Below are positions 23,252 to 24,953 of a stretch of 64,000 bases of DNA, piece by piece; the first letter of the stretch is position 1; every line of letters starts with the position of its first letter. The notes under the pieces are model-generated. The model had not been told where the DNA came from, did not search any database, and worked only from the letters and a program-made list of their open reading frames with translations. Origin of the DNA: Podarcis cretensis. Taxonomy: Eukaryota. The translations under genes and the position numbers were made by a program. The stretch is taken from NCBI GenBank assembly GCA_951804945.1, contig OX638151.1:81964001-82028000 (forward strand), read 5' to 3'.

Positions 23252-24953
23252 ATATCCTTTATGTCACTGTATTTTTTATTGAGGTGCATTGTTGTTATTG
23301 CGTCCTAACTTAATGTATTTATTTCTTTGTCTCAGAAAATGTAAAGCAGTCCACAGTGGCTGGCAAGCACCCCAAAGTTTGAATGAACCTGGTTAGATAG
23401 AGTCCAAGCAGGCAAGCCAAAAGACACCTTAAAGTTCAAGCTTCAAGGAATAAAGAGGGAGGGTGGAAAAAGATAAAAAGAAAACTGGAAGAGGGGAAGT
23501 CCTTTTTCAAGGAAAAGACAAAGCCACAACACCAAGTTAAGGCTTCGGCTTTCCGACATTTGCTCAAGTTCCAAAGTCAAAGCCAAGTCTGATTTGGTTG
23601 GTTCTCCGGCCCTTGTCAAGTCCATCTAGCAAGCCCTAAAGAGTAAAGGTCAAGATCAAGTGACATGGAGGTAACTGCCAAAGTTTCCTTTTGTATCTTA
23701 TCGCTCAAGCTCTTACGTTGCAGTCAAGAATTTGTTTGTTTATAACTGTTTTAGTTTAAAATATTGCTTCCTTAAATTGGTACAAGAGAACTGTATGCAA
23801 ATATTTGTTCGCTTTTCCATGAGTCATTTTCCTAACAGAATAGATTTCATTGGAATACTGAAACATATCAGTAATTTAGATGATCTGGTGACATATTTTT
23901 GTGGCATTTACAGCTATTTGTTTTAAATATTGGGAGTAAAGGAGGAGGAAAAACAAGTCAGCTGTTTATAGATATGAACAATGTCTGCAGTAAATCAGAA
24001 CAGAAGTAATGAACTGAGGCTGCTTACCTGAGAGTAAGCCACATTGACTTCAGTAGGACTTCCTCAGTAGATATGGTTAGGAGTACACATCTAGATAATA
24101 TTATTTTCCACATCTAGGTAATATTTCCTATTAGTGCGTCGAGTTTAAGGGCCTTCAAATAAGGTGCACACCTTAAATATTTTTGCTTTAGTTTAGTTAT
24201 GCATTAATGATGTAGGGACTCCAAAATACACAGCGAGTCCCTTCCTACCATTCATTCCTTTGCCATTCAGTTCTGTAGAGAAACAACTCTGTGTGCCCAC
24301 AGACATGACATTGAAATGGAGGGGAAACCACTGTGTGTGGGAATTTCATGTGCATTTCAGTGTACACATGAGTTTCTGAATAAGGGCACCTATACTTTAA
24401 AGGCATTTATTATTACCTTGTTTCTGCATGTCATTGAGCTGCCTCATACTTTTTGTGGCAATCCAGGTATACTGACTGGTACTTGCTGTGACACACATAC
24501 AAAGTGTGAAAGAAAGATGCACATCTTGCAGAATTTTGTGGGCCTTGACACCTACTGGGTTCCCTTGAGAAAGATGGGGCTTGCAAAACAAAGCGGGGAT
24601 GACAACATGACTAGGGCAGTGGGCTCTGACAGATGCCTGAGCTTGCCATTCTCTGGAGTCAACACTGTTTTGAAATATGCATTGTACCCTGGACGGGGAG
24701 TTGTGGCTAATCCTAGTTTCCCAGCGTGCTTGTGGTTGTGTGTCTTCCTTCCATACATATATATATATACAACCAAACACACTGCTGGAGTTCTGCTGTA
24801 TTTGAGTGGCAATATAAAGTATGAAGCAGCTCTCAGCTTAAGTGGCATATCAAAATAACTTGCTTTTTAAAGTATCTGGAGTAATTTGGTCTATGTTACA
24901 TGATACAATTTTTTGCTTTGTGCATGTTTAAAGCGTCCTTAACAGACAGTCAT
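23252..24953 (+). other. SRSF12: U12-type (minor spliceosome) intron of SRSF12, apparently with AT...AT termini
   Basis: 5' splice site ATATCCTTT at 23252 and branch site TCCTTAAC at 24936-24943. The frame-restoring 3' end (CA|G TTT GAA = Q-F-E) follows CAT at 24951-24953. Confidence 0.88.

Follow-up and report, generated by a model that had tools for sequence, protein, structure and literature searches.

The SRSF12 locus and its minor intron

The window, the whole stretch of 64,000 nucleotides analysed here, carries the SRSF12 gene, whose exons (Table 1; the last from 26130 onward) encode a 256-aa RRM-RS protein. The peptide of exon 2 is 91% identical to that of the SRSF10 exon on C8, and exon 2, used as a protein query against the genome, returned 4 matches, the 2 strong ones being SRSF12 and SRSF10 (C8). 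A contig from run X1 joins 23251 to GTTTGAAG at 24954 with a depth of 11.1. The productive minor intron therefore spans 23252-24953 (1702 nt) and is of the AT-AT type. The same junction corrects the end of the U12 intron given by an initial annotation of this DNA to AT|24954, and rules out an AT-AC end at 24948, which would add the residues VM. As in the SRSF10 module, the minor donor of exon 2 thus yields coding mRNA.

AT-AT ends are rare. SRSF10 of this genome has an AT-AC intron, and among other animal copies the termini are AT-AC in 36/37 and AT-AG in 1/37. The human SRSF12 minor intron is listed as AT-AT with 1623 nt in PMC6717393 Table S7 and the supplements of PMC8280824, and the AAAG of acceptor 24934 is present there too, ahead of the branch site.

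Past the minor donor, the intron contains a segment that had been proposed as a poison exon nested in the U12 intron. The U12 donor, the CCTAAC branch site (23304-23309), the acceptor CTCAG|23336, the 335-nt segment and the GAG|GTAACT donor are all in place. The acceptor lies 84 nt past the U12 donor at 23252, which thus faces a U2 acceptor, and of the 37 GT sites within 23256-23760, GAG|GTAACT alone agrees with the donor consensus at 7 of 9 positions. Translation places early stops on both entry routes. Read-through from exon 2 stops in frame at TGA 23280-82 with a 66-aa product, 388 nt before 23670. Likewise, exon 1 joined to the segment reads ...RKCKAVHSGWQAPQSLNEPG* and stops at TAG 23394-96, as initially annotated, 274 nt before 23670. 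On either route the stop is more than 50 nt upstream of the downstream junction, and messages through the segment, read-through and cassette alike, are predicted NMD targets.

The segment is rich in purines and in AAG. Its GA-rich block, confirmed with 62/79 purines, has a richness that just 6 places reach across the two strands of the 64 kb. AAAGACAAA, reported in the published passages as an SRSF10 binding sequence, occurs once in the window, at 23514-23522. [CAT]AAG motifs number 27 in the segment, whereas 380 control windows average 5.4 and none exceeds 17; the segment also contains an AATAAA at 23449. A DNA search finds it in single copy in the genome. An origin from a repeat or mobile element was rejected on this count and because no tandem array is present at the segment; a coding exon was rejected because all three frames carry stops and the 63-aa open stretch has no protein relative.

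Elsewhere in the window, a PNRC1-like gene (PF15365; 36389-38711, minus strand) stands head to head with a single-exon ORF (39273-39812, plus strand) that, as we take it, resembles BORCS6. Intron 1 of SRSF12 harbors small elements with terminal inverted repeats (20105-20350, 20490-20850 and 21034-21337), presumably MITE-like.

Table 1. Features of SRSF12 and its minor intron, in positions of the window.
Feature	Position	Strand	Basis or remark
SRSF12 exon 1, coding part	19170-19234	+	sequence, translation; U2 donor GTAAGC at 19235
SRSF12 exon 2, RRM first half	23147-23251	+	translation
Minor (U12) 5' splice site ATATCCTTT, productive route	23252-23260	+	sequence; X1 contig
TGAGGTG motif, common to SRSF10 intron 2	23280-23286	+	alignment, translation
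U2-type branch site CCTAAC, pyrimidine tract, CAG	23304-23335	+	alignment; counterpart of SRSF10 exon 3 acceptor
SRSF10 exon 3 homologue, non-coding, AAG-rich, exonic in RNA	23336-23670	+	alignment, reads, stops in 3 frames
Counterpart of mapped SRSF10 enhancer (exon 3 nt 17-60)	23356-23398	+	alignment
Purine block	23447-23525	+	62/79 purines; counterpart of SRSF10 exon 3 nt about 111-200
Major (U2) 5' splice site GAG|GTAACT, used	23671-23676	+	5 X23 reads leave 23670; X1 and X10 contigs break there
Decayed minor donor GTATCTTAT	23693-23701	+	aligned to GTATCCTAC of SRSF10 exon 3
U2 pyrimidine tract and acceptor AAAG|24934	24905-24933	+	3 nt before U12 branch site; main partner of 23670
U12 branch site TCCTTAAC and AT terminus of AT-AT minor intron	24936-24953	+	sequence, X1 contig
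SRSF12 exon 3, RRM second half	24954-25057	+	256-aa productive protein
SRSF12 exon 4	25252-25393	+	acceptor is probable second partner of donor 23670

Relationship of the segment to SRSF10 exon 3

SRSF10 of this genome (G000:C8:30195697-30197390; L003, L006) carries a minor donor, a major donor at +67, a 403-nt U2 intron and a 364-nt exon 3 followed by GTATCCT. This layout agrees with the published one, as described in the passages drawn on (Meinke et al. 2020, PMC7244321), and the exon matches another vertebrate copy (L077) at 348/364 bases. Aligned to SRSF10 exon 3, the segment scores 185 over a span from the branch site to the old minor donor. By comparison, 500 dinucleotide shuffles score 55±8 (maximum 85), 500 local shuffles reach at most 75, and 22 other non-coding windows of SRSF12 at most 87. 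Branch site, tract and CTCAG co-align between the two genes, and the minor donor of SRSF10 exon 3 falls on the site at 23693, from which no reads leave in 4 runs over 23200-24000. In the global alignment 240/326 ungapped columns are alike (74%), or 240/393 with gaps (61%), a non-coding identity that gapped alignment inflates and for which the shuffles control. Third codon positions of exon 2 agree between SRSF12 and SRSF10 in only 16/34, indicating that the non-coding exon is less diverged than silent sites.

The neighbourhood of the two genes is shared as well. A PNRC domain lies 10-13 kb from SRSF12 and from SRSF10, and these are its only 2 matches in the genome, suggesting that the copy came with a block duplication, which we take to be the vertebrate genome duplication. 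Judged by sequence comparison, the segment is a paralogous copy of the autoregulatory exon 3 of SRSF10. The initial annotation had described an analogous but differently wired circuit; the different wiring stands, and mere analogy gives way to homology by alignment and PNRC neighbours.

In mouse, the enhancer of SRSF10 was mapped to exon 3 nt 17-60, according to the passages drawn on (PMC7244321). Its counterpart in SRSF12 is alike in 31/37 ungapped columns, with the AAAGAG core deleted and AAAGACAAA found further on. The GA-rich block that had been pointed out is not the counterpart of the mapped enhancer.

The paralogue and close relatives both show conservation of the segment (SRSF10 alignment, comparisons with X1 and X10). 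Sequences of X1 differ from the window at 1/449 positions in 23222-23670 vs 9/360 beyond (p=0.007), and at 0/137 positions in 23641-23777 vs 8/223 in the rest (p=0.026). The same contrast in X10, 0/137 vs 6/223, is not significant (p=0.09). Likeness to SRSF10 and absence of X1/X10 differences reach about 100 nt past the donor (23671-23780), which points to a constrained block of about 23273-23780.

Splicing of the segment and the proposed wiring

A search for runs listed 24, with no holder recorded as RNA, an outcome that we do not count as evidence. Reads of 4 of these runs (X1, X10, X21 and X23) were placed on 23200-24000, a stretch with exons 1 and 3 outside it. X23 is stranded RNA-seq, of which 12% was read, and X21 is single cell. 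X1 and X10 were taken as RNA by guess, and for X1 the spliced junction of exon 2 to 24954 proves it.

All 29 reads of X23 are sense. Their depth is 0 at 23254-23307, 2 at the acceptor, 2-13.8 inside the segment and at most 2 beyond 23686. Five of them exit at donor 23670 as loose ends (consensus agreement 0.6, no joint listed). The consensus fits 24934 in the first 15/15 letters, the best of 355 AG sites, and acceptor 25252 explains 11 of the last 15; the two together account for 29/30 letters, against 26 for the next-best pair, 3/30 for acceptor 24946 and 9/30 for 24950. The donor, whose use had been predicted, is spliced mainly to 24934 and probably also to exon 4 (25252). The predicted partners had been 24946, 24950 and 25252; the last probably holds, and the main partner is another site. 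Read support for this donor is thin, with 5 junction reads from one run, and contigs of X1 and X10 break at the same place.

X1 contains an unbroken contig of 23222-23670 (exon 2, spacer and segment) that crosses 23336 at a depth of 15.6. The intron beyond the donor appears at a depth of 5.9, in a contig that begins at 23641 and so has the 30-base overlap that a branch after 23670 should leave. In X10 the intron contig ends at 23641 too, and no segment contig is present, perhaps through filtering of records. Because the X1 contig is unbroken at 23336, its surplus of ~10 over the intron depth would enter via exon 2; contigs drop rare variants, and exon 2 depth is not comparable since conserved reads may be filtered. 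In X21, 1 of 8 reads passes from exon 2 into the spacer. One contig holding both exon 2 and segment means that the two are not strictly exclusive, as spliceosome incompatibility had been thought to make them. Depth in X1 is about equal for the route via 23670 (~9.7) and the productive one (11.1); this level is high for an NMD target and suggests that decay, if any, is incomplete.

At the acceptor, no joint or loose end is listed at 23336 in the 4 runs over 23200-24000. Two X23 reads begin at its edge (~23333-23335), below the listing threshold, which fits acceptor use or one fragment. A donor-like site, CAG|GTACAA, lies at 23089-23097, 55 nt before the exon 2 acceptor, and an upstream exon ending there would also fit the 2 X23 reads aligned to 23333. 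An 84-nt AT-AG mini-intron (23252-23335) was rejected, with no joint listed and a branch-to-AG distance of 28 nt; it may still occur at a low level.

The best-supported wiring is a competition of two donors, the minor one at 23252, which leads to protein, and the major one at 23671, which would lead to an extended exon 2. We consider it probable that SRSF12 carries the inherited autoregulatory exon of SRSF10, with these donors competing, a degraded message and likely control by SRSF10/SRSF12. Minor splicing of 23251 to 24954, seen in the X1 contig, gives the 256-aa protein. Otherwise exon 2 runs through the 84-nt spacer into the segment, as seen in X1, and translation would end at TGA 23280, 388 nt before the next junction. 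Major splicing, mostly to 24934, removes a 1263-nt U2 intron (23671-24933) nested in the 1702-nt U12 intron, and puts the U12 branch site into the exon. The 403-nt U2 intron of SRSF10 and its donor lack a counterpart here, suggesting that the exon became fused to exon 2, with the major donor at its far end. From homology and motif, the AAG repeats would bind SRSF10/SRSF12 and favour donor 23671, and NMD would remove the non-productive product. Productive SRSF12 would then follow minor-spliceosome activity and fall as SRSF10 or SRSF12 rises. From the homology to SRSF10, autoregulation or SRSF10/SRSF12 control of the segment via the AAG repeats is likely; the eroded core of the mapped enhancer is a point against it. 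Homology to SRSF10 exon 3 and use of donor 23670 are much firmer than the whole chain. The initial annotation's unproductive exon competing with the U12 intron stands in so far as the segment is exonic in RNA and every route meets an early stop; its entry as a cassette has less support than read-through.

Human records list events in the same intron. Catalogue rows for human SRSF12 report alternative donors and acceptors both in cortex and in testis; for testis they add upstream-exon skipping and a cryptic exon (PMC6717393). These rows are category labels without coordinates, and all human SRSF10 and SRSF12 MSI values in them equal 1. In ZRSR2-mutant samples the supplements of PMC8280824 list a core exon and an alternative acceptor of human SRSF12 as up; the retention change falls short of significance once corrected (padj 0.11), and the row is suggestive only as a sign of minor-spliceosome-dependent inclusion. 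For the human minor intron the catalogue rows thus name an alternative donor, an acceptor and an internal exon, with neither a link to SRSF10 exon 3 nor a mechanism. We infer that the human exon is the orthologue of the segment, and it is probably annotated in Ensembl, RefSeq or VastDB.

SRSF12 is mentioned once in the passages of PMC7244321, as omitted for low expression, and a review that lists SR genes with poison exons does not include it in the part drawn on. A Ciona SRSF10/12 isoform without RRM is described as giving way to the full one under heat (PMC10573349). In the titles, abstract starts and passages covered, we found neither a link between the SRSF12 exon and SRSF10 exon 3 nor the invertebrate block described below. 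This scope includes passages of PMC8522700, PMC6884704, PMC11571805, PMC10639083 and PMC12330525 and one supplement row of PMC6800510; Leclair et al. 2020 (Mol Cell), reportedly a survey of SR poison exons, may mention SRSF12. An exon and alternative sites in the human intron are already recorded, without coordinates.

Other readings of the segment lead to different entries or fates. A cassette could dominate, with exon 1 spliced to 23336, exon 2 skipped since a U12 donor cannot join a U2 acceptor, and exit at 23670. It would reach the same early-stop outcome by another entry and may coexist with read-through by tissue. The start of X23 coverage at 23333-23335 and its zero depth in 23254-23307 fit this route better than read-through, and conservation of the acceptor, with branch site, tract and CAG kept in common with SRSF10, argues for its use. 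Upstream-exon skipping (CAT3) and a cryptic exon (CAT9) in the human testis rows (PMC6717393) and the core exon that is up in ZRSR2 mutants (PMC8280824) point the same way, as do several invertebrate blocks that begin within ~10 nt of a tract-AG. However, 23336 has no listed loose end or joint, X1 spans it in one unbroken contig at ~10-fold depth above the downstream intron, the 2 X23 reads could stem from a single fragment, and CAT3 can also mean exon 1 joined to exon 3. We regard dominance of the cassette as unlikely. Less likely still is a decaying relic without regulatory role, in which 23670-24934 is an opportunistic cryptic splice around a slow AT-AT intron. The decay of enhancer core and minor donor would suit it, and A-type minor introns are described as commonly switching to cryptic major sites (PMC8280824); yet non-coding identity to the paralogue exceeds third-codon identity, X1 differences are fewer than in the adjacent intron, AAG density is the highest of the window, and the block recurs in 37/37 complete orthologous introns.

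Homology to SRSF10 exon 3 and the AATAAA at 23449 would allow the segment to work exactly as that exon does, as a polyadenylated alternative last exon. This is very improbable, since reads pass 23449 and splice out at 23670 with no end pile-up listed (among few reads), and the AATAAA located 643 nt after the start of SRSF10 exon 3 has no AATAAA counterpart in SRSF12. We give the least credence to a segment that exists for an RRM-truncated protein from ATG 23665. Its frame is open if joined to 24946 (METVMFED...), as had been pointed out, but the isoform finds no support: the reads indicate 24934 (MERP*) and 25252 (MEHQVR*), acceptor 24946 explains too few consensus letters, the longest open frame of the segment has no protein relative, and the human acceptor lacks the second Met codon. 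Competing donors thus remain our preferred reading.

AAG blocks in other animals and comparison with known systems

A pattern of exon-2 end plus minor donor matched 90 metagenome stretches, 61 of them distinct. Together with the two genes of this genome, and minus 9 short and 2 unrelated sequences, 52 loci were scored for [CAT]AAG, a motif chosen after viewing the segment and 3 of these loci. The best 300-nt count exceeds that of the opposite strand in 51/52, that of upstream DNA in 36/37, and all 100 dinucleotide shuffles in 47/52, the 5 failures all having no exon 3 in their sequence. Where the whole intron is present (vertebrate L077 not counted), 37/37 loci, all from host DNA in metagenomes, contain a block, with 16-28 motifs vs 3-15 antisense; all 37 beat a GAA[CAT] control, and the blocks carry stops in all frames in all but 1 locus. 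Since the 37 loci fall into 9 groups at 85% peptide identity or 7 at 80%, the independent cases number 7-9. Linear alignment to the vertebrate exon is weak, with gaps and a best z of 4-7 in 6 loci, and we therefore claim likeness at the level of the motif only. By nearest named protein, the 3 loci checked in one group of 4 belong to stony corals (67-68 of 68 residues), while L037 resembles bivalves (65/68) and L012 molluscs (61/68); the remainder are unplaced animals.

The layout of these loci varies. A compact, SRSF12-like arrangement, with tract-AG and AAG block directly after the minor donor, occurs in L037 (+69 from the U12 donor), L033 (+66) and the coral loci L014, L026 and L044 (+117 to +120). 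L037 starts AG|AACATGTAAAG, SRSF12 AG|AAAATGTAAAG; L037 has a second ATATCCT at +438, and in L051 ATATCCT directly follows the AAG block. Judging from these layouts, the short spacer may be ancestral and the longer one of SRSF10 derived. Two related groups of unplaced invertebrate genes differ in their donors. In one, of 14 loci (L008, L011, L015, L020, L040, L054 and others), most have a major-type donor AG|GTAG ~17 nt past the minor donor, a placement that resembles the major donor of SRSF10 at 67 nt. In the other, of 10 loci (L021, L031, L081, L083 and others), the AAG block of several closes with a TG|GTAATT site, as in SRSF12. Both vertebrate wirings seem to recur in invertebrates.

Among the 90 metagenome matches, none is a distant vertebrate SRSF12 intron with the segment, be it of a bird, a mammal or a fish; the vertebrate yield is 1 SRSF10 (L077) and 1 fish-like locus cut 70 nt past the donor (L070). 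Prokaryote and viral collections gave single, unrelated matches. In six public SRSF10/12 gene models of molluscs, a fish, a leech and a centipede (P0018, P0064, P0077, P0106, P0111 and P0119), the reading frame continues across the U12 donor (...AYIQYP...), the minor intron apparently being mis-annotated.

We tentatively suggest, as a possibility that we hold with less confidence than the wiring of SRSF12 itself, that the AAG-repeat decoy exon in the U12 intron predates the split of cnidarians and bilaterians and serves as a feedback device throughout animals. SRSF10/12 would act as a minor-spliceosome sensor, and the wiring (a major donor before or after the block, or a second minor donor) would have been rebuilt repeatedly while the motif block was kept. 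The low, brain/testis-restricted output of SRSF12 would be set partly by SRSF10 acting on the inherited exon. SRSF10 exon 3 is described as tying SR-protein levels to minor-spliceosome activity and temperature (PMC7244321, PMC7726792). Cold induces the SRSF10 event. A retained, rewired copy would offer a concrete explanation for how SRSF12 is held low, would predict cross-regulation from SRSF10 to SRSF12, and would make the two genes a natural pair for studying how minor/major competition is rewired once a gene has been duplicated. Should the blocks of corals and molluscs act likewise, they would be among the oldest known unproductive-splicing elements, with a motif cluster kept under so little linear alignment that ordinary conservation scans would miss it.

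The closest known system is the SRSF10 exon 3 module, as described in the passages of PMC7244321 and PMC7726792. Both genes have the intron at the same position, a minor donor for productive mRNA, a competing major donor and a stop in the exon-2 extension. The homologous exon measures 357 nt against 364 nt in SRSF10, with matching acceptor and terminal minor-donor position. The major donor lies 67 nt after the minor donor in SRSF10 and 419 nt downstream, after the exon, in SRSF12. A 403-nt U2 intron precedes exon 3 in SRSF10, whereas SRSF12 has an 84-nt spacer and no such intron; the best donor in the spacer (23284, 6 of 9) would leave 52 nt, and the X1 contig crosses the spacer. Exon 3 of SRSF10 is mostly ended by polyadenylation, while the SRSF12 segment splices out at 23670; the minor donor at the exon end is an intact GTATCCT in SRSF10 and decayed in SRSF12. 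The intron has AT-AC ends in SRSF10 and AT-AT ends in SRSF12, where the U2 intron nested within it reaches an AG ahead of the U12 branch site. The SRSF12 stop is far enough upstream for canonical NMD, unlike in the SRSF10 module. The SRSF12 switch shares its ancestral element with that of SRSF10 and would act like it, without three defining features of the SRSF10 module, the internal U2 intron ahead of the exon, the minor donor at the end and terminal polyadenylation.

Exons 6a/6b of MAPK8/9 and the exons of TMEM87a/b are exclusive through U12/U2 incompatibility, with a U12 donor facing a U2 acceptor, as in SRSF12. Unlike these, the second exon of SRSF12 is non-coding, has lost its U12 donor and occurs on one contig with exon 2.

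Twintrons with a U2 intron inside a U12 intron (Drosophila prospero; HNRNPLL, ZNF207 and C1orf112) are described in passages of PMC8329584 with a purine-rich element beside the competing sites, as here. In SRSF12, the U2 intron 23671-24933 lies inside the U12 intron 23252-24953 and both are spliced (5 loose-end reads and 1 contig, respectively). Prospero makes two proteins, whereas the major route of SRSF12 is non-coding. The main texts of that review and of the twintron survey PMC3564746 do not name SRSF12.

Poison exons of SRSF4/SRSF6 (Lareau and Brenner 2015, PMC4379411) likewise place an unproductive event at the same position in vertebrate paralogues, as in SRSF10/SRSF12, two genes not mentioned in the passages of that paper drawn on. 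The SRSF4/SRSF6 exons are described there as U2 cassettes of vertebrate origin, whereas that of SRSF12 lies in a U12 intron, is rewired, and has a counterpart in motif as far as corals.
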